From a virus: a DNA stretch of 37,249 bases. The position numbers and the translations under genes are program-made. The notes under the pieces were generated by a model, which saw only the letters and a list, made by a program, of their open reading frames with translations, had not been told where the DNA came from and searched no databases. The first letter of the stretch is position 1. Each line of letters starts with the position of its first letter. The DNA is taken from positions 1 to 37,249 of the IMG/VR virus record IMGVR_UViG_3300044984_000814, one strand, 5' to 3'. Shown here one piece after another: positions 2,276-24,217 of this stretch.

Positions 2276-3067
2276 ATGACAGACACACCAAAAACAAACG
2301 AAGCGATTGTGGCGCATGAACCGCAAAACATGGCATTGGCACAAGTAAGCGCGGAAACTCAGGCGTTTGAACTAATCCAACGCCAAGCCAAGATGCTCGC
2401 ATCATCCACGCTAGTTCCAAAGGACTTTGCCGGGAACGTGGCGAACTGTGCGATTGCGCTAAACGTGGCAAAGCGGACGCGCCTTGACCCATTGATGGTC
2501 ACGCAAAATCTTGCAATCATTCACGGACGTCCAAGTTGGAGCGCAACGGCATTGATCGGCATGATTAACGCAAGCGGAAAGTTCTCGCCACTCCGATTTG
2601 TCATGGATGACGACGACGCGCCGACTTCCTGCTATGCTATGGCACGGGACCGGGAAAGCGGCGAGGAGCTTAAAGGCGAAAAGATCACGCTTGAAATGGC
2701 CAAGAAAGAAGGATGGTCAACCAAGAACGGGAGCAAGTGGCTAACGATGCCGGGGCAGATGCTGCGATACCGTGCCGCGAGCTTCTGGAGCCGTGCATAC
2801 GCTTCCGACATGAGCTTGGGGATGTATACGCAGGACGAGGTGCGGGACTTCGCAGAACCGCCTCGCAACGTCACTCCTGCCAAGTCAAATCCGTTTATGG
2901 AGGAGCCTGTTGAAGCACCCGCTGAAGTCCAAGAACAAGAACAAGAACCCGTGCAACAAATCGAGGTTGAAATAGTAGCGTCTGAAGAACCCGAAAAGAA
3001 ACAAAAACCCGGCATCGGCAAAATGGACGCGATGTTTGAGGAGATGGCCAAAAACGCATCAGCATAA
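2276..3067 (+). CDS. recT: RecT-family single-strand annealing protein
   Basis: Core LASSTLVPKDFAGNVANCAIALNVAKRTRLDPLMVTQNLAIIHGRPSW...GKFSP...MLRYRAASFWSRAY is typical of RecT. The acidic C-tail and the adjacent exonuclease gene fit a recombination module. Confidence 0.8.
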   Translation: MTDTPKTNEAIVAHEPQNMALAQVSAETQAFELIQRQAKMLASSTLVPKDFAGNVANCAIALNVAKRTRLDPLMVTQNLAIIHGRPSWSATALIGMINASGKFSPLRFVMDDDDAPTSCYAMARDRESGEELKGEKITLEMAKKEGWSTKNGSKWLTMPGQMLRYRAASFWSRAYASDMSLGMYTQDEVRDFAEPPRNVTPAKSNPFMEEPVEAPAEVQEQEQEPVQQIEVEIVASEEPEKKQKPGIGKMDAMFEEMAKNASA

Positions 3068-3364: not shown

Positions 3365-3523
3365 ATGAGAGTCACACACACACCATTTAAAACAAGAACC
3401 CGTGCAATCGGAAGCGATTTCGAATTGACAATCGCCCTAATCGGCGCGTTAAGAAACCCAAACAAAAGCGCATTCAGCAAACTAGGCAAGATCGCCGCAA
3501 CCATTACGAAGCTATTCAAATGA
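3365..3523 (+). CDS. Hypothetical small protein (52 aa), absent from the ORF track
   Basis: Hand translation gives MRVTHTPFKTRTRAIGSDFELTIALIGALRNPNKSAFSKLGKIAATITKLFK. The ATG follows aaacgaaacaaacgaa, and the stop forms an ATGA overlap with the 3520 start. I prefer it to the isolated minus-strand ORF 3343-3534. Confidence 0.5.
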   Translation: MRVTHTPFKTRTRAIGSDFELTIALIGALRNPNKSAFSKLGKIAATITKLFK

Positions 3524-4323
3524 AAATCAAACAAGGACTAGGCAAAACGTATTACGAACAAACGGCAACACCTTCAGATCCCAAGGCGGGACCAGTGTCA
3601 AAGTCGCTTCTGTGGGATTTCCACAAGTCCCCGTTTAAGTGGCGGCACGGAAGCCAAAGAGAATCATCGAAGGCGATGGAACTAGGGACGCTTATCCACG
3701 CCGCAACTCTGGAACCTGAAACATTCGAAGACCTTGTTGTCGTCTCCCCATATCCAGACTTCCGCACAAAAGAGGCAAGGGAGTGGAAGATTGACCAGAT
3801 GGGACTCGGCAAGATCATCACTTCGGAAGAGGAGTTCGGAAAGATTAAAGAGATTGCAACGGTTGTCCTCGATGACTACCACCTGAACTTCTTGGCGTTC
3901 TACAAAACCGAAATGGCGGTCTTCGGCAAGATTGGAGATACGGACATCAAAGGACTGATTGACCTTGTGCCTGATGGCTTGGATTGTCTGGTGGATCTCA
4001 AGACAACCTCCAGCTTCGACTCTCTAGATTCCATTCAGCGGACCATCGTGAACCGTGGCTACCACTGGCAGGCGGCACTTTATCTTGACCTGTGGAACGC
4101 AGCAAGCGGAGAGAAGCGGACACGGTTTGTCTTCTGCTTCGTGGAAGTGGACGCACCGCATGAAACGGCATGGGTAGAAATATCTGAGAATTTGCTCGAC
4201 ATCGGGAGGGCTGGATATATGAATGCCGTAGCGAAGTGGCAAACTTGCATTGCAACGAACCACTGGCCGAAACAAATTGAAGGAATAGCAATCATCGAAA
4301 CACCAAAATACATACAACAATGA
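3520..4323 (+). CDS. PD-(D/E)XK (RecB/Cas4/YqaJ-like) exonuclease, partner of RecT
   Basis: Motifs GTLIHA, IDLVPDG...LVDLKTT (D...D/ExK) and YHWQAALY (QxxxY-like). It sits immediately downstream of RecT. Confidence 0.7.
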   Translation: MKIKQGLGKTYYEQTATPSDPKAGPVSKSLLWDFHKSPFKWRHGSQRESSKAMELGTLIHAATLEPETFEDLVVVSPYPDFRTKEAREWKIDQMGLGKIITSEEEFGKIKEIATVVLDDYHLNFLAFYKTEMAVFGKIGDTDIKGLIDLVPDGLDCLVDLKTTSSFDSLDSIQRTIVNRGYHWQAALYLDLWNAASGEKRTRFVFCFVEVDAPHETAWVEISENLLDIGRAGYMNAVAKWQTCIATNHWPKQIEGIAIIETPKYIQQ

Positions 4324-8776: not shown

Positions 8777-8970
8777 CTTACGAAACGTATCAACGCATTC
8801 AACGGCTCGCAAAGAGAGAGGGAATCAACCCATCCAAAGCCCTTGAACTGCTGGTAAGAACCGAAGAGTCAGAGAAAATAGAACCAACCCAAATTGTCGA
8901 TTACGCCAAGATCAACCATCGAGGGACTGGCTACACCGTAACGCATATCCTAGATAAGCACTTCAAATGA
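8680..8970 (+). CDS. Hypothetical protein, possible ribbon-helix-helix DNA binder (96 aa)
   Basis: ATG after gaaaaacgac. RVTASFRLTYETYQRIQRLAKREGINPSKALELLV looks RHH-like. Confidence 0.5.
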   Translation: MSNYSKDNGFRIITGRPRRKPWEQRVTASFRLTYETYQRIQRLAKREGINPSKALELLVRTEESEKIEPTQIVDYAKINHRGTGYTVTHILDKHFK

Positions 8971-9839
8971 AATTATTCGATCCACCACCACCAACTCAAT
9001 GGAACGTACTGAATCTTGGGGCCGGAGTGCAGTCTTCATGCCTAGCTTTAATGGCCGCGAAAGGAGAGATAACACCAATGCCCGACTTCGCGGTCTTTGC
9101 TGATACTCAGGCAGAGCCTCAGAGCGTTTATGATTGGCTTGACTGGCTTGAAAAACAACTACCGTTTCCAGTTTTTAGAGTCACCAAGGGCAACTTGACT
9201 GAGGAACAGTTAAAACTAAGGACGATCAAGAAAGATTGCAAGCATCACAAGGCAGGAATGGACTACGTTCGCAAAATCATCCCCCTATTTGGAAGGCTGC
9301 CAAACGGAGAAATACAAGGTGCTGTTGGTCGATCATGCACTGCGGACTACAAAATAGCACCAATACTCGCGCATATTTCAAGACATTGCGGAATCACCCG
9401 TGGTCAAAAAGATATAAGCGTAACACAATGGATTGGTATCTCTTGGGATGAGTTGCAGCGCATGAAGGAGCCAACAAAGAAATGGACACACCATAGATGG
9501 CCGTTGATTGAAAATCGCATGACAAGGCAAATGTGCCTAAAATGGATGCGAGAAAACCATTATCCAGAACCTCCAAGGTCTGCTTGTGTTTATTGTCCGT
9601 TCCATAGCAATTCCGAGTGGAGGCGACTAAGAAATGATGAACCAGAAGAATTCCAAAAGGCCGTGGAATTTGATGTGGAAATACGCGCTCAATTCAAAAA
9701 AGACATTGTTCATCAAATGGACGTCTTTCTTCATAGATCGTGCAAGCCCCTTTCAGAAATTGACTTTGATTCAGACGAAGACAAGGGCCAGCAAGTTTGG
9801 GATTTCCAAGCCGAGTGCGAAGGAATGTGCGGAGTATAG
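8967..9839 (+). CDS. PAPS-reductase-family PP-loop protein (phage DndC-like type)
   Basis: N-terminal nucleotide-binding loop VLNLGAGVQSS, then FADTQAEP, GRSCTADYKI and a C-terminal CVYCPF cysteine pair. Confidence 0.65.
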   Translation: MKLFDPPPPTQWNVLNLGAGVQSSCLALMAAKGEITPMPDFAVFADTQAEPQSVYDWLDWLEKQLPFPVFRVTKGNLTEEQLKLRTIKKDCKHHKAGMDYVRKIIPLFGRLPNGEIQGAVGRSCTADYKIAPILAHISRHCGITRGQKDISVTQWIGISWDELQRMKEPTKKWTHHRWPLIENRMTRQMCLKWMRENHYPEPPRSACVYCPFHSNSEWRRLRNDEPEEFQKAVEFDVEIRAQFKKDIVHQMDVFLHRSCKPLSEIDFDSDEDKGQQVWDFQAECEGMCGV

Positions 9840-19328: not shown

Positions 19329-21391
19329 TGTTGCATTCCTTGGGTTGTCACGCCGCCCATTTGAGCCGGATTTGTTCCAATTTTGCCAATTTCGGCGTTC
19401 TGAGCTTGCTGCATCATAAATTGATACTGCTCCATATATTTCTGAAGTCGTCCTGCGAATGCTTCATCAGACTGAGCGCGTTGAGCGATGTCAGGTTGCT
19501 GAACATAGGCTTGAACCATCTGCATAGCAATTTGTGCTCCGTTTGCTTGGGCTGGAACCTCGATACCAGCAAAGATCTTAGCAAGGTCATCAGTGACGTT
19601 CTTAGCGACCTTCTGTTGTGCTTCTTCAACTGGCTGCAGCACGTAGTCCGCAAAGATCGGGTTGATCGAGGATGCCGTAAACTCAAGGAGCTTATTGACA
19701 TCGAGGATTCCATTCCGATCAAGTTGGACAAGAGAAACCATGTTCTTGAGTTGCGTCTCGGATGTTTCTGGATCGGTGGACAATGAATCAAACGACACCG
19801 TAATGCTGAAGTTCTCATCAGGGCTACCCTTGGTCATCGTCTGCGGATTGGGATTCCCGGTGACTTGAAAGAATACCTCATCAGGCCCCATGCGTTGATA
19901 CAGCTTCCAAGCCATATTGAGCACGTCACGAACATGATCCAAAAATTTGCCAATGTAGAACTGTTGGCGGGCTGCAGTAAGCGGGTTGGTTAAATCAAGA
20001 CCAACGGCACGATCCGCTTGCGCTCGCATCGACATTTCAGCTTCAACCGATCCTTGATCCATTTGAGGAACCGGACCCCAAGCAATCTCACCAAGACGAC
20101 GGTAAGGGACACGACGCCCGGGACCCCAGTCAGACGGCGGACGTCCAGCAGGGTGCATTAGTGGGGGCAACGTAGCCAGTGAAGCTCGGTCAATCCGGCT
20201 ATCACGCTCAGTCTTGATCTGCATTTGTGCGCCACGGAGGACATCCGAGAATGTCTGGACCTCATACATGCGCTTCTGGTCATTTGCCAAGCGGGTCACT
20301 ACAAACGGGTAATCGTCGTATCCATTGAGGAGTTCATGCTTTGCGTAGCCTTCCGTTTGTGGGTGAAACACGGTGCAATAGATACCTTCGCTTCCATCTT
20401 CTTCGTCAATCAAACGCTGGTAGCCATAGACAACCATGACCAAGTCGTTGTCATCAGTAATTGGGAGGCGTGTGATTGTCTTTACCTTCTCGCCATCAAG
20501 ATACATGGAATCTTTCCCACGGAGGTTTGAGATTGCGTGATCAACCCACTTGCGGTCCCATCCTTCATTTGTCGCCTTTTTCTCAAGCTCCTGAGCAGTC
20601 AAGAACGTACGCCAGAAGATATACGGGGCGCGTTGAGGATCGGAAACATAAGGTGGAAAAACCACCTCGCCATCTGGAGCGCAAGAATAGACAATCGGGC
20701 AATCGACGGTTTGACGAGGAAGCGGGATCTCCGCCATTCCTGTTTTCCGCATATCTCTGATTGCTTTCTTCGCACGCTTGTTCGACAGGTCTGGAAAAGC
20801 TTGCTGGATCAAGCCAAGCAGCATTTCGTCATCATTCCCGTCAATAATAAGATTGGCTAGATCAGGGGATTGTTGGGCAATTTGTTCAATGGTTACTTGT
20901 TGTAAATATGTCCTTTTTTCTCGCTTCCATCCGACATATGATACCATAATCCCCTTCTCTAGCAAATAGTTCGCTCCCAACTCCATTTGGTTTTTGAAGT
21001 CAGGAATATAAGTCGAACGCATCCATTTAAGGAACGACGACACCATAGAGGCTCGCGGCATTGACGCCATAGACGTTGGGAACGCCTTAATATGGCTGCG
21101 TTGAAGTGCTTGGTCAAACAAAGACACATACATGTCAATCCGTTCGCCAACTACGTTTACTTCTTGATCTGAAGCTCCCTGCCATGGGAAAGCATTCGCG
21201 CCGTTCTTTCGAAGATCATCAGATTTTCCATCCCAGATATTGCGCCGATCATTGTAAGACCTAAGACAAGACTCAAAATAGTAGTCAAGATCAATCAAGC
21301 AGGTATCGTAAGCATCGGCTAACGCGCCAACATCCGGCTCTTTATCCGCATAGATAAGAGCGTCATCTTCTACTTCTTGTGATTCAATCAT
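19325..21391 (-). CDS. Portal protein
   Basis: 688 aa, located between the TerL-side genes and the scaffold/capsid genes. Called on size and synteny. Confidence 0.7.
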   Translation of the reverse strand: MIESQEVEDDALIYADKEPDVGALADAYDTCLIDLDYYFESCLRSYNDRRNIWDGKSDDLRKNGANAFPWQGASDQEVNVVGERIDMYVSLFDQALQRSHIKAFPTSMASMPRASMVSSFLKWMRSTYIPDFKNQMELGANYLLEKGIMVSYVGWKREKRTYLQQVTIEQIAQQSPDLANLIIDGNDDEMLLGLIQQAFPDLSNKRAKKAIRDMRKTGMAEIPLPRQTVDCPIVYSCAPDGEVVFPPYVSDPQRAPYIFWRTFLTAQELEKKATNEGWDRKWVDHAISNLRGKDSMYLDGEKVKTITRLPITDDNDLVMVVYGYQRLIDEEDGSEGIYCTVFHPQTEGYAKHELLNGYDDYPFVVTRLANDQKRMYEVQTFSDVLRGAQMQIKTERDSRIDRASLATLPPLMHPAGRPPSDWGPGRRVPYRRLGEIAWGPVPQMDQGSVEAEMSMRAQADRAVGLDLTNPLTAARQQFYIGKFLDHVRDVLNMAWKLYQRMGPDEVFFQVTGNPNPQTMTKGSPDENFSITVSFDSLSTDPETSETQLKNMVSLVQLDRNGILDVNKLLEFTASSINPIFADYVLQPVEEAQQKVAKNVTDDLAKIFAGIEVPAQANGAQIAMQMVQAYVQQPDIAQRAQSDEAFAGRLQKYMEQYQFMMQQAQNAEIGKIGTNPAQMGGVTTQGMQQ

Positions 21392-21675
21392 GATACGTAT
21401 TCGTAATAGTCTTCAGGGTCGGCAGATACTAAGCACACTTTGATGCGTTTGCCAAGGAGTTTCTGAGATATGCGTGATGGGCATTTGACAGGGACAGCTA
21501 GTCCATCCATGCGAACAATCACCCAGCTTGTGTTGCTACACATACGGATTACCGTGAATTGGTCTTCAATTTGCTGGTCAATAAGACTATTGAGACTGCA
21601 TGGAGAATCTTCAACAATTAGGAACTTCTTGGCCGGACGACCCCGTTTTGCTGCTTTTTTTGCTTGTGTTTTCAT
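21388..21675 (-). CDS. Hypothetical protein (95 aa)
   Basis: ATG 21675 lies one nt after the TerL stop. ATGA overlap with the portal start. Confidence 0.45.
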   Translation of the reverse strand: MKTQAKKAAKRGRPAKKFLIVEDSPCSLNSLIDQQIEDQFTVIRMCSNTSWVIVRMDGLAVPVKCPSRISQKLLGKRIKVCLVSADPEDYYEYVS

Positions 21676-21676
21676 A

Positions 21677-24217
21677 CTAATATCCACCAGACCCATGAGT
21701 TGTAACAAATGACTGGCTATTGTCAACATGATCGAGATTGGCTATCGCGGCATACCTGCAAACGTCAATTGGGTCTTTCCACGCTTCTTTAAGCCCGCCT
21801 TCGCCAGTGTATTCGGACAACGCCTGAATGATGTTCTCGCAGTCGGAACTGACGTAGAATTTGGGACGATTGACGGAATCCAGAGGCTTGCTGGTATCCC
21901 ACGACATCTTGCCGATAAGTGCCTGAAGTCCATCGTCAATATCAAGCCCCGGTGCTGGAATACAGACCATGCCTGACTCGTTTAAGTCCTCAATGATCGA
22001 GGAAGATCCATCTTGGACCTGATATTTGGCGGCCCCAAGGCGAGGGTCAATAAGACGTTCAAATATTTCCTCTTCGCCCTCCATCTCCTGAATAGCCTCA
22101 ATGTAGTCCCTAATGCCAAATCCTTGACCTTTAGACCCCGGTCCCGGCATCCATTTCCCACTTTTCCATTCAGCCCAGTCACCAACATCAACTCCCGGCC
22201 ATTCACGGTAAACCCAGAATGTTCCAGTCTCGTCAATGGCTATCCAGCACATAAACCAGTTTTTCGCACCCGCTGGATCAATTACATGGTATCGAGTGAT
22301 GTTCTTGGTTGGTATGGAGGAAGGAGGAACCACATTGACCACCTTATTGAACTTCGGGAACTTAGTTGCGTGAGACTTCATCGGCACACCGTATGCGCGG
22401 ATGAGGATCTCTTCCCTAGTCCTTCCTGACAGCGTTTCCTTAATGCGTTCGTATCCACCGAAAGCATTGTCCTGAGAGTGGAAGTAATGCACTGAGGCAT
22501 TTAGCTTCTTGGACTTCTGGACATACGGCACCAATTCTCCATTTAGCAATTCGGCTGGTCTTGATTCGATGGTTGTTGCACCATCAAGATACTCCTTGAT
22601 AACCTCCGTCCAACCATCAATGGGCGTGAACGTCACAAGCATCTTCGCGTTTCTTGTCGCAAGACGGAACCTAAGCGTGTTAATTAGCTCCGGTCCTAAA
22701 AGGTATTCATCCAGCCATACTCCAATGTTGTGCCAGACATGGTTCTTTGATCCAAGTTCTGCACCTTCAAGAATGGTTGGATTATTTTGATACTGAGAAT
22801 ACGTCTTGAAAATGATTTGAGAGCCATTAGGAAGGATCAAAGATGAATCAGTGAATCCTGTCTTCTTCTTGTAAGAGATATAGGTATTCGCGCTTGTCTG
22901 CTTGGTCTTGAGGTTCTCTGGTAGCCAGTCCCACACCGCGCTTTGTTGCTGGCGAATACTCACCTCTGATGTCTGAGCAAAGCAGAAGATTTCAGACTTA
23001 GGGTTCTCAATAGCAGCGCGGACAACGGAGAACGCTCCCCACTGAGTCTTTCCAGAATTGTGTGAAATCACTCCAGCGGCGACATAGTTGTTGTGAATCG
23101 GCACATGGAAATCCCAAACGATGTCGTCTCGGAGGTAATCGATACTTTTTATCTTTACTTCTGGGGGAAATAGTGTATTCTCCATGCATGGCAAGAAATA
23201 TAGAATACCCCGTTGAACAAATCCGACAATGGATTGAAGAAGGAAAAACCCAGCAATGGATTGCTGACGAGTTGGCGAAATCAGTTGACCCGAGGATTCA
23301 GGCGAAACTAATCTACAAGGTTTGCAAACGTCACAACATACAATGTCAAAGGAATGGCCCCCGATCTGGCTCAGGCCATCCTGAATGGAATAATGGGAAG
23401 ATTTTCTGCAAAAACGGCTATGTGAAGATTTACGTTCCAGACCATCCGTCTTGTCTGCGCGTGAACAAGAAAAGAGAGGAAAAAGCCAATGGCAGATATT
23501 TTCGAAAACTACATTATGTTTGGGAGCATCGTTATGTAATGGAGTCAATTCTTGGTCGTCCTTTAATAAAAGGCGAGGTCGTTCATCACATTGATGGCAA
23601 CACATCAAACAATCACGAATCCAATCTTGAGCTTTTCCAAAGCAACGCCGAACACCTTCGCCAAACCCTTGTAGGGAAAGTCCCCAAATGGACGGAGAAG
23701 GGACTTGCGAATATCGCGTTTGGGCGTTCACTAGAGGGGAGCCGGACAAGAGCGAACTTAAAGGCTTCCATCCGAAGGGCGTCAGGAGCAAGTGAGCCAT
23801 TGAGCAATGTAGAGATTCGCCGTTACTTAGCGTTACTTGGTAGATCCCTGAAACAGGTTTCTGAAATGGAGTCTCTGCTCGGGCTTCCACTATTCGATGA
23901 CCGTCCCAAGCATGAACGTGAAATGATCCTTTAATTTCACTAACTTTAGTCGATGTCTTGGATACCGGGTCATAAATTTCCTGCTCGCCTCCAAGGCATC
24001 GATTTCCACCTAGTGCAAGTATCTCGTTAACCTCAAACAGTTGCTCTTCAGCCTTGCTCCAGTGCGGAAGGCGGAACCCATAGTGGTATGGATCTTTCTC
24101 AGCATTCTCAATCGCCTCATGGTAAACGGAGTGAAGCCCGATTAGTTCATCTGGTTCCATTTGCACCATCTCCTCATCGGTAGGTGGCGTGAGAATTGCG
24201 TGTTTCCGCCAAATCAT
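21677..24217 (-). CDS. terL: Terminase large subunit precursor (846 aa) containing a 314-aa intein; spliced product predicted to be 532 aa
   Basis: Exteins join as LALGGNR + SGKTQWG, giving Walker A GxxxxGKT. Walker B is IGVWLDEY. A nuclease-domain-like RYHVIDPAGAKNWFMCWIAIDETGTFWVYREW follows. The ORF is uninterrupted across the whole span. Confidence 0.85.
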   Translation of the reverse strand: MIWRKHAILTPPTDEEMVQMEPDELIGLHSVYHEAIENAEKDPYHYGFRLPHWSKAEEQLFEVNEILALGGNRCLGGEQEIYDPVSKTSTKVSEIKGSFHVHAWDGHRIVEARAETPFQKPVSGIYQVTLSNGESLHCSMAHLLLTPFGWKPLSSLLSGSPLVNAQTRYSQVPSPSIWGLSLQGFGEGVRRCFGKAQDWIRDCLMCCHQCDERPRLLLKDDQELTPLHNDAPKHNVVFENICHWLFPLFSCSRADKTDGLERKSSHSRFCRKSSHYSIQDGLSQIGGHSFDIVCCDVCKPCRLVSPESSGQLISPTRQQSIAGFFLLQSIVGFVQRGILYFLPCMENTLFPPEVKIKSIDYLRDDIVWDFHVPIHNNYVAAGVISHNSGKTQWGAFSVVRAAIENPKSEIFCFAQTSEVSIRQQQSAVWDWLPENLKTKQTSANTYISYKKKTGFTDSSLILPNGSQIIFKTYSQYQNNPTILEGAELGSKNHVWHNIGVWLDEYLLGPELINTLRFRLATRNAKMLVTFTPIDGWTEVIKEYLDGATTIESRPAELLNGELVPYVQKSKKLNASVHYFHSQDNAFGGYERIKETLSGRTREEILIRAYGVPMKSHATKFPKFNKVVNVVPPSSIPTKNITRYHVIDPAGAKNWFMCWIAIDETGTFWVYREWPGVDVGDWAEWKSGKWMPGPGSKGQGFGIRDYIEAIQEMEGEEEIFERLIDPRLGAAKYQVQDGSSSIIEDLNESGMVCIPAPGLDIDDGLQALIGKMSWDTSKPLDSVNRPKFYVSSDCENIIQALSEYTGEGGLKEAWKDPIDVCRYAAIANLDHVDNSQSFVTTHGSGGY
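23057..23998 (-). mobile_element. Class-1 Hint intein in the TerL P-loop (Cys1 ... His-Asn / Ser+1)
   Basis: Block A CLGGEQEIYDP (Cys codon 23996-23998). Block B NGESLHCSMAHLLLT. Block F DDIVWDFHVPIHNNYVAAG. Block G VISHN (Asn codon 23057-23059), followed by Ser+1 at 23054-23056. Confidence 0.8.
23188..23934 (+). CDS. HNH homing endonuclease (HTH + HNH_3-type), encoded antisense inside the TerL intein
   Basis: N-terminal HTH-like EQIRQWIEEGKTQQWIADELAKS. Core GYVKIYVPDHP...HYVWEHRYVMESILGRPLIKGEVVHHIDGNTSNNHESNLELFQSNAEHL. I checked the codons 23581-23640 by hand. The first ATG in frame is 23188; the track ORF begins at GTG 23062. Confidence 0.75.
   Translation: MARNIEYPVEQIRQWIEEGKTQQWIADELAKSVDPRIQAKLIYKVCKRHNIQCQRNGPRSGSGHPEWNNGKIFCKNGYVKIYVPDHPSCLRVNKKREEKANGRYFRKLHYVWEHRYVMESILGRPLIKGEVVHHIDGNTSNNHESNLELFQSNAEHLRQTLVGKVPKWTEKGLANIAFGRSLEGSRTRANLKASIRRASGASEPLSNVEIRRYLALLGRSLKQVSEMESLLGLPLFDDRPKHEREMIL

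Follow-up and report, generated by a model that had tools for sequence, protein, structure and literature searches.

We analysed a stretch of viral DNA of 37,249 nucleotides (nt), positions 1–37,249 of the IMG/VR record IMGVR_UViG_3300044984_000814 (hereafter the window), whose minus strand encodes the precursor of a large terminase (TerL). In the usual description, an intein is a single polypeptide that contains its endonuclease as an in-frame domain. Our results make it very likely that the TerL gene of the window carries, within its Walker A codons, a mobile class-1 intein, with its homing endonuclease encoded by a gene of its own on the other strand. The TerL precursor frame crosses the reverse complement of this gene, which encodes an HNH endonuclease, without a stop codon, and the resulting linker of approximately 185 amino acids (aa) between the two splicing (Hint) lobes has no predicted structure. 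An earlier note on this DNA had proposed that a reversed HNH gene occupies the endonuclease slot of the intein, while the TerL frame is kept readable so that a junk linker can be translated. This core reading is supported by stop avoidance in the TerL frame, selection on the HNH frame, a linker without a fold, the existence of mini-intein alleles and an intein that appears younger than its exteins. Both open reading frames (ORFs) named by the note are present, and the locus is composed as follows.

21677–24217, minus strand: TerL precursor ORF, 846 aa, unbroken (ORF list; Pfam Terminase_6N on residues 385–621)
23999–24217, minus strand: N-extein, residues 1–73, ending in LALGGNR, the first half of Walker A (aligned against empty alleles of 532 aa)
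23057–23998, minus strand: intein, residues 74–387, 314 aa, from Cys1 to His-Asn, followed by Ser+1 (exact alignment gap, junction codons, Hint profile)
23720–23998, minus strand: Hint N-terminal lobe, residues 74–166, with blocks A and B and the motif CS-x-x-H (beta-rich in the AlphaFold2 model; selection on the TerL frame)
23165–23719, minus strand: TerL-frame linker, residues 167–351, a stop-free antisense read-through of the HNH gene (no fold, no domain match)
23057–23164, minus strand: Hint C-terminal lobe, residues 352–387, with blocks F and G, ending in VISHN (AlphaFold2 model; positions 121–155 of the Intein_splicing profile)
21677–23056, minus strand: C-extein, residues 388–846 and stop codon, starting with SGKTQWG, the second half of Walker A (alignment with 532-aa alleles, sequence)
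23188–23934, plus strand: HNH endonuclease ORF, 248 aa, ATG start, antisense to the intein (ORF list, Pfam, PHROG)

The intein and its alleles

The earlier note had placed an uninterrupted intein of 314 codons at residues 74–387, and alignment to intein-less alleles confirmed these boundaries exactly. Such alleles measure precisely 532 aa (846 minus 314) and join GGNR directly to SGKT, so that the insertion point, GGNR/SGKT (the slash marks the junction), is located inside the Walker A P-loop of TerL. Extein identity was 96–99% for TerL homologues, and 97–99% for intein-less alleles compared with the TerL of the window (99% for one such allele, P0134). Searching databases with the precursor yielded the length classes 532 aa (empty), 643–689 aa (mini-intein) and 823–858 aa (full). 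The mini-inteins comprise 129–157 aa, lack the nuclease and are common in the same terminase clade, in which empty, mini-intein and full alleles occur side by side. In IMG/VR, 121 contigs (L088–L208) carried empty sites.

Both splicing blocks that had been claimed were found. Position 1 of the intein is the nucleophile Cys74 (TGC codon at 23996–23998), which is invariant among 13 relatives. Block B reads C-S-M-A-H in the window and C-T-A-N-H or C-S-K-A-H in relatives, with Cys and His invariant. The C-terminal junction of the window is VISHN/S, and all junctions located in related loci consist of His, Lys, Arg or Ala followed by Asn and then Ser, Thr or Cys; in a minority of loci the penultimate His is replaced by Lys, Arg or Ala (KN/S, RN/S or AN/S). 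We joined the two Hint lobes of the window and combined them with natural mini-intein alleles to a Hint profile. Among inteins of solved structure, this profile matched DnaB (8e-12), gp41-1 (6e-8) and, from end to end, the Mtu RecA mini-intein (3e-9). By these features, the element is a class-1 intein. Since it interrupts the essential Walker A motif and its open frame is conserved, the Hint lobes are predicted to splice and thereby to restore a ligated terminase.

The antisense nuclease gene and the open TerL frame

The plus-strand product matched Pfam HNH_3 (PF13392) with 32.1 bits, above the gathering cut-off of 24.8, and PHROG HNH families with E values of approximately 1e-21. More than 100 homologues were found for this product, and the HNH_3 match recurred in 19 of 20 relatives. 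In an alignment of these 20 proteins H133, H134, N142 and N153 were invariant and H156 nearly so. The AlphaFold model of the protein reached a mean pLDDT (local confidence score of the prediction) of 81, and its best Protein Data Bank match in Foldseek was I-HmuI (1u3e, probability 0.96). I-HmuI is a nicking enzyme that combines a His-Me finger with separate DNA-binding modules. The earlier note had also described an N-terminal helix-turn-helix (HTH). While its HNH assignment is well founded, the HTH is less so: the model suggests a putative HTH-like module of three helices, and HTH matches in Pfam were weak and confined to a few relatives. Subdivision of the HNH ORF and its candidate promoter gave the following features.

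23188–23767, plus strand: stretch of the HNH ORF whose own frame is under purifying selection, approximately aa 1–193 (codon-position profile, dN/dS)
23768–23934, plus strand: last ~55 codons of the HNH ORF (the tail), lying over the Hint N-lobe (no selection in its own frame; selection on the TerL frame)
23212–23331, plus strand: putative N-terminal three-helix (HTH-like) DNA-binding module, aa 9–48 (AlphaFold2 helices 9–17, 22–32 and 39–48)
23527–23655, plus strand: HNH_3 catalytic core, aa 114–156, HRYVMES...EVVHHIDGN...NLELF.SNAEH (Pfam match aa 114–150)
23154–23181, plus strand: weak sigma-70-like promoter candidate, TTTACT (23154–23159), 16 nt, TATTCT (23176–23181) (score 8/12)

An alternative upstream start, GTG at 23062, would extend the HNH ORF to 290 aa. 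The sign of the plus-strand AT skew flips over approximately 23000–23900, as expected for a plus-strand gene within a minus-strand block.

In the HNH ORF, codon position 1 lies opposite codon position 1 of TerL (24217 minus 23188 is divisible by three), in agreement with the frame relation that had been claimed. This register pairs the wobble bases of the nuclease with the middle bases of the linker codons. The three antisense frames over the HNH ORF contain 14, 13 and 0 stop codons, and the frame with none is that of TerL. The note's assertion that this openness exceeds chance was borne out by two null models. In the first, the codons of the HNH ORF were permuted synonymously in 20,000 trials that kept both protein and codon usage: the TerL frame then contained on average 9.2 stops and at least 1, and none of the 20,000 permutations was stop-free. 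The second null model comprised 18 other gene segments of the window, read in the same antisense frame. There, this frame was the most stop-rich of the three, with 5.6 stops per 100 codons and a longest stop-free run of 100 codons. At the window-wide rate ~14 stops are expected, and the Poisson probability of none in 249 codons is approximately 9e-7. As an internal control the earlier note had pointed to long antisense ORFs elsewhere in the window, all in the codon-aligned frame. This control holds: coordinate arithmetic places the antisense ORFs of the capsid and small terminase (TerS) genes in that frame, and the capsid, TerS and CHAP genes contain few stops in it.

Pooled over 85 related ORFs, we counted 0 stops in the TerL frame versus 554 expected from synonymous permutation. 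The codon-level cause was evident wherever the next HNH codon starts with A. In this context NTN codons never ended in C or T (0 of 683, versus 60% elsewhere) and NCN codons never ended in T (0 of 863, versus 39% elsewhere). Stop avoidance thus works via purine-ending synonymous codons before codons that start with A. Phe is a special case, because TTY followed by A has no synonymous remedy; the amino acid is avoided at such positions altogether (0 of 206, with 56 expected). This rule constrains the nuclease protein itself and can therefore be read from protein sequences alone. An exhaustive HMMER search returned 1002 clusters at 50% identity (E<=1e-10), and we tested the best 144 representatives. 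Among their 393 Phe residues only 2 were followed by Ile, Met, Thr, Asn or Lys (F-[IMTNK] dipeptides), versus 86 expected, and the protein-level signature was present in 143 of the 144 independent clusters. Intein-less terminases, analysed as a control, contained 306 such dipeptides versus 229 expected.

Five close relatives, whose HNH proteins are 90–99% identical to that of the window, share this layout gap-free. Substitutions among these sequences gather at TerL codon position 3 in the exteins and in the two Hint lobes. Over 23183–23767 they gather instead at TerL position 2, which is HNH position 3. Nei-Gojobori estimates of dN/dS in the overlap were 0.06–0.11 for the HNH frame, versus apparent values of 2–3 for the TerL frame. 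TerL-frame values for exteins and Hint lobes were 0.01–0.26 (N-lobe 0.08–0.21, C-lobe 0.04–0.09). Judged by these values, the nuclease is under strong purifying selection, while the TerL-frame linker is constrained only to stay open. Relatives either lack the HNH tail or differ in it, and many end their HNH ORF at 171–230 aa. The term 'dual-coding', which the earlier note had used, applies in a limited sense only: over most of the overlap a selected protein is encoded in just one of the two frames, and in the HNH tail, which overprints the Hint N-lobe, selection is on the TerL frame.

The note had seen no endonuclease motif in the TerL frame of the linker, and no recognisable endonuclease fold is present there. 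Residues 167–351 gave no Pfam match at E<=10, and in an AlphaFold model of the precursor, built from an alignment of 66 rows of which 28 cover the linker, its pLDDT was 20–37 (N-lobe 70–83, C-lobe approximately 75, most extein blocks 75–94). Mini-intein alleles lack the linker. Compared with synonymous-permutation controls the linker is slightly more hydrophilic (z<0 in 71 of 79 loci, z<-2 in 33), but this small shift is confounded because stop avoidance itself creates Ser and Leu codons. Its composition shows an excess of Asp, Lys, Gln, Ser and Glu and a deficit of Tyr, Val and Pro, part of which may stem from stop avoidance.

For expression of the HNH gene, we compared 69 distinct upstream regions of related loci. 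Pairs of −35 and −10 boxes that scored at least 9/12 were present in 36% of them, versus 6% of shuffled sequences, and a TTGACA-like −35 box was locked at position −37 or −34. Two classes can be distinguished. In class 1 the −10 box ends 6–9 nt before the ATG, which implies a leaderless mRNA, while in class 2 it is located ~30 nt upstream and followed by a Shine-Dalgarno sequence. Many relatives thus probably possess a sigma-70-type promoter that gives a leaderless or short-leader HNH mRNA, although part of the signal may be coding constraint, since the −35 box overlaps Val-Lys codons of the Hint C-lobe. The homologous position scored 10/12 in locus L007. In the window, the putative −10 box TATTCT ends 6 nt before the ATG and would give a leaderless mRNA.

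Related loci, mobility and alternative explanations

An IMG/VR search with an alignment of HNH proteins returned at least 508 stretches confirmed by tblastn, of which 85 loci were examined; the host genes tested in this set are terminases. In 84 of the 85 viral contigs the HNH ORF (33–99% identical) was covered by a stop-free antisense frame of 500–1255 aa, always in the same register. Two Walker A registers, GGNR/SGK followed by T or S and GK/T, are used in different terminase families. Three distant HNH homologues appeared free-standing in gene-caller output, beside a 'short' terminase or helicase, but proved to be embedded, with open host frames. Layout and frame relation thus hold throughout a large and old family of phage inteins; the earlier note had suggested looking for such conservation in related contigs.

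A few members of the family deserve separate mention. In L212 (1161–3507), which holds one of the three embedded homologues, the same antisense HNH cassette with 0 stops in the host register resides in the P-loop intein of an SNF2-family helicase (SHN/CGLGKT), which suggests that the cassette switches between P-loop hosts. The only related HNH gene that is truly free-standing, in L006 (3794–4393), shows 17 stops per 200 codons in the register in question and is possibly a relative of the cassette's free-living ancestor. The loci L209 (945–3930), L211 (936–3656) and L087 (1501–3987) were mis-annotated by gene callers: either the terminase start was put inside the Hint C-lobe, leaving N-extein and N-lobe uncalled, or the full precursor was called and the HNH gene left out. 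A scan of one genome per bacterial or archaeal species returned merely three short contigs of metagenome-assembled genomes, with no host assignment and no sign of a cellular reservoir.

Comparison of the window with L001–L003 revealed a nucleotide divergence of 2–4% within the intein versus 13–14% in the exteins, and with L004 the values were 12% versus 29%. Accordingly, dS was 1–3 in exteins and 0.07–0.6 in inteins. Between the window and L004 the last N-extein difference lies at −9 and the first intein difference at +33, so the break in divergence falls within ~10–30 nt of the N boundary of the intein. Low divergence of the intein and a break at its boundary point to horizontal movement of the whole intein into diverged terminase alleles; by this measure the intein is much younger than the alleles that carry it. 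A further pair of loci differs in the cassette. The Hint lobes of L086 (1501–3495, mini-intein) and L087 (1501–3987, full) are ~99% identical in DNA, and the two are separated by a clean in-frame indel of 549 nt that contains the antisense HNH gene with its start codon. The HNH cassette was therefore recently gained or lost by itself. Identities of HNH, Hint and extein sequences correlate moderately (rho ~0.5), which does not separate co-divergence from transfer.

The codons at the insertion site read GGTGGAAATCGA/TCTGGAAAGACT in the window (23045–23068 and 23987–24010) and GGTGGCAACCGG/AGCGGCAAGACG in the empty allele L088. Junction Arg was encoded by CGA or CGT in 8 of 8 occupied haplotypes versus 12 of 73 empty ones, and junction Ser by TCN in 6 of 8 versus 24 of 73. 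In this small and non-independent sample the contrast could reflect co-conversion, or resistance or escape of the target site.

We propose that the Hint lobes would fold around the linker, splice, restore GGNR-SGKT and release a working terminase of 532 aa. The HNH protein, with its HTH-like module and I-HmuI-like His-Me finger, would be made from its own antisense transcript and would nick or cut intein-less terminase alleles of co-infecting phages near the P-loop codons. Homing would then proceed by recombinational repair that copies the intein together with the HNH gene into the empty site, while loss of the cassette would leave mini-intein alleles. The phage's own recombination genes could help in this repair: the window encodes a RecT-family annealing protein (2276–3067, plus strand) and a PD-(D/E)XK (DUF3799) nuclease (3520–4323, plus strand), a pair that could act on endonuclease-induced breaks.

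Alternatively, the mobile unit might be the HNH cassette rather than the intein. A free-standing homing endonuclease gene would then target the loop of pre-existing mini-inteins, a safe harbour where an in-frame insert is spliced out, and the Hint lobes would hitch-hike by co-conversion. The nearly identical L086 and L087, which differ by the cassette, fit this explanation, as do the abundance of mini-intein alleles in the same terminase clade and published proposals of such an origin for non-canonical inteins. We nevertheless consider it unlikely, since divergence between the window and L004 drops at the N boundary of the intein, with no break at the cassette edges, and since HNH and Hint identities never decouple (no pair combines HNH identity of at least 80% with Hint identity below 60%, or the reverse). 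Moreover, empty sites are abundant as targets. Movement of whole inteins and of cassettes is compatible, and neither excludes the other. The earlier note had raised the different possibility that the HNH protein is an accessory nuclease of the terminase, acting in packaging like HK97 gp74. The gene is indeed embedded in a terminase gene, and HNH proteins beside cos sites and terminase genes form a known class (PMC3592412). Such a role is very improbable here. Terminase alleles 97–99% identical in protein do without intein and HNH gene, and no HNH homologue was encoded in 1.05 Mb from 120 empty-site contigs (stretches of 3–15 kb around TerL, that is, partial genomes). In addition, the cassette also resides in a helicase intein, the protein matches HNH_3 and homing enzymes of the I-HmuI type, and the intein bears signatures of horizontal transfer.

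Could the TerL-frame insert (residues 167–351) be a functional domain, with both strands selected over the whole overlap? The frame is open in every relative, and the hydrophilic shift in 71 of 79 loci would agree with a selected protein. However, substitutions at TerL position 2 with apparent dN/dS of 2–3, a pLDDT of 20–37 despite 28 alignment rows on the linker and the lack of any Pfam match argue against such a domain, as do the dispensability of the region in mini-intein alleles and the confounding of the shift by stop avoidance. We therefore give this explanation very little credence. Least probable of all, to the point of being negligible, is that a split intein joins the terminase from two polypeptides (a 'fractured gene'), or that the locus is an assembly inversion or chimera. 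Gene callers do split the host gene in some related contigs, and fractured terminase genes with free-standing endonucleases exist. Yet the split calls are annotation artefacts, since the host frame is open with 0 stops in register, and more than 85 contigs, assembled independently from different samples, show the arrangement. Without translation across the HNH gene, openness of the TerL frame would not be maintained.

Several points weigh against a mobile intein with an antisense homing endonuclease. Splicing, HNH expression and cleavage are steps that we infer. Related loci are phylogenetically non-independent, so the pooled counts overstate the number of independent events, a problem that the 144 cluster representatives lessen. 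Over residues 115–387, Pfam Intein_splicing scored 31.8–35.7 bits, just below its gathering cut-off of 35.8. The structural match to I-HmuI is weak (E value 0.08, TM score 0.23–0.32, 22% identity over 110 columns). Regarding expression, the promoter candidate of the window scores only 8/12, a scan for consensus promoters and terminators detected no site at the HNH start in the window, and no Shine-Dalgarno sequence precedes the HNH ATG there. Finally, the cassette, not the whole intein, could account for some of the mobility.

A mobile intein with its endonuclease on the opposite strand could be part of something broader. Published surveys regard the antisense layout as a rare accident of short duration. 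We are evenly divided on whether the antisense layout represents an old, evolutionarily stable architecture and a major type of intein at the P-loops of environmental phage terminases. If so, one lineage that unites Hint and antisense HNH would have retained its register while the nuclease diverged to ~33% identity, and would have reached at least one helicase besides different terminase families and both registers of Walker A. The register may persist as almost every stop is synonymously removable and the linker is free to evolve independently of the nuclease. With an embedded promoter and an early leaderless antisense transcript, the endonuclease could be expressed at another time than the late terminase.

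The locus is of interest beyond the window. Such a layout can be common and long-lived in uncultured phages, and since gene callers truncate the terminase or drop the nuclease, inteins and endonucleases of this kind are under-counted in databases. The overlap is a clean natural case of a protein-coding strand whose complement is selected for nothing but openness, with an explicit codon-level mechanism. Protein sequences alone reveal the constraint, as a lack of Phe before Ile, Met, Thr, Asn or Lys. The coexistence of empty, mini and full alleles provides a tractable system for 'splicing-first' models of endonuclease acquisition. For intein engineering, it matters that the Hint scaffold naturally tolerates a non-folding insert of ~185 aa.

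Among 50,697 deposited phage genomes, blastn of the terminase region returned no match and thus no cultured relative. In PHROG, the TerL precursor gave a marginal terminase match only, and most genes neighbouring TerL gave none. The upstream gene, presumably that of the small terminase and itself unmatched to any family, shares an ATGA at its end with the TerL start (24214–24217), while a 113-aa ORF (21388–21729) overlaps the 3' end of TerL by 53 nt (21677–21729). Further away, on the strand opposite to the structural module, lies a gene resembling phosphoadenosine phosphosulfate reductase (8967–9839, plus strand; phrog_424, 2e-49).

Comparison with known systems

The earlier note knew of no antisense endonuclease nested in an intein. 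This statement is out of date, as antisense LAGLIDADG and VSR-like endonucleases have been published. For the Synechocystis DnaX and the Chloroflexus SpoVR-like intein, a later preprint (bioRxiv 10.1101/2025.01.02.630785) credits the antisense LAGLIDADG genes to Gorbalenya 1998 and Gogarten 2002. The same work, a survey of actinobacteriophage inteins, describes antisense LAGLIDADG, antisense VSR-like and frame-3 EndoVII-like endonucleases, TerL included among the hosts, and lists HNH only in frame. For the cyanobacterial dnaX intein, the same frame-specific pattern of selection as in our locus was reported (bioRxiv 10.64898/2026.09.14.751524). Like these non-canonical inteins, the window intein carries an endonuclease ORF between its splicing blocks but outside the intein frame, with the host frame open. 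It likewise combines purifying selection on the endonuclease frame with a raised apparent dN/dS in the host frame, and there is evidence of continuing transfer. The proposed origin of non-canonical inteins is a mini-intein invaded by a free-standing endonuclease gene. Unlike them, the window intein encodes a nuclease of the HNH_3 type, an I-HmuI-like His-Me finger, and an antisense HNH_3 would constitute a fifth non-canonical type. While the known cases are called rare, we found at least 508 stretches in IMG/VR and ~1000 clusters at 50% identity (E<=1e-10). A single fixed frame register and a measurable amino-acid-level constraint on the endonuclease set our family further apart.

In fractured genes, a free-standing GIY-YIG or Vsr-like endonuclease gene lies between the halves of a split intein (Dassa et al. 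2009, PMC2677866), and that paper offers a model for the acquisition of endonucleases by inteins. The resemblance to our locus is a separate endonuclease gene in the endonuclease slot of a phage intein; one fractured-gene host is a terminase as well. However, fractured genes consist of two ORFs and require trans-splicing, whereas the window and 84 of 85 loci have an unbroken frame, and our endonuclease is an HNH protein on the opposite strand. An out-of-frame HNH gene is also hidden in an insertion in a DNA methylase of the mycobacteriophage ShiLan, for which leaderless translation was proposed (Arsenault et al. 2025, PMC11855218). As in our case, the host frame runs without stops through the insertion that the HNH gene overlaps, and no ribosome-binding site is recognisable. 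In contrast, the ShiLan insertion has no Hint domain and, according to its authors, its HNH gene is on the same strand in another frame, while Hint lobes flank an antisense gene in the window.

The dCTP deaminase intein of cyanophage CL131 contains an in-frame HNH_3, and its splicing was shown experimentally (PMC6293099). It shares with our element the combination of Hint and an HNH_3 nuclease in a phage gene, but its HNH_3 is a domain of the intein polypeptide and not a separate antisense gene. Splicing occurs in the P-loop inteins of mycobacteriophage TerL, whose endonucleases cut partners that lack an intein (Kelley et al. 2016, PMC5050341). Like these inteins, that of the window is inserted in Walker A. 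Its site, GGNR/SGKT, lies three residues upstream of the 'classic' GK/T site, which other members of our family also use. The two mycobacteriophage inteins that were assayed for cleavage differ in that they have an identifiable endonuclease domain within the intein (PMC5050341). Concerning the nuclease itself, I-HmuI from a group I intron of the Bacillus phage SPO1 (PDB 1U3E) is the best structural match of our HNH model; the putative DNA-binding module is N-terminal here, and the host element is an intein, not an intron. In the literature that we covered, which is incomplete, we found no report of an antisense HNH or HNH_3 gene in an intein, or of a family this large. Thus, a layout that was already known and reputedly rare is extended here by the type of its nuclease, by the size and age of the family, by a fixed register and by stop avoidance that can be quantified.

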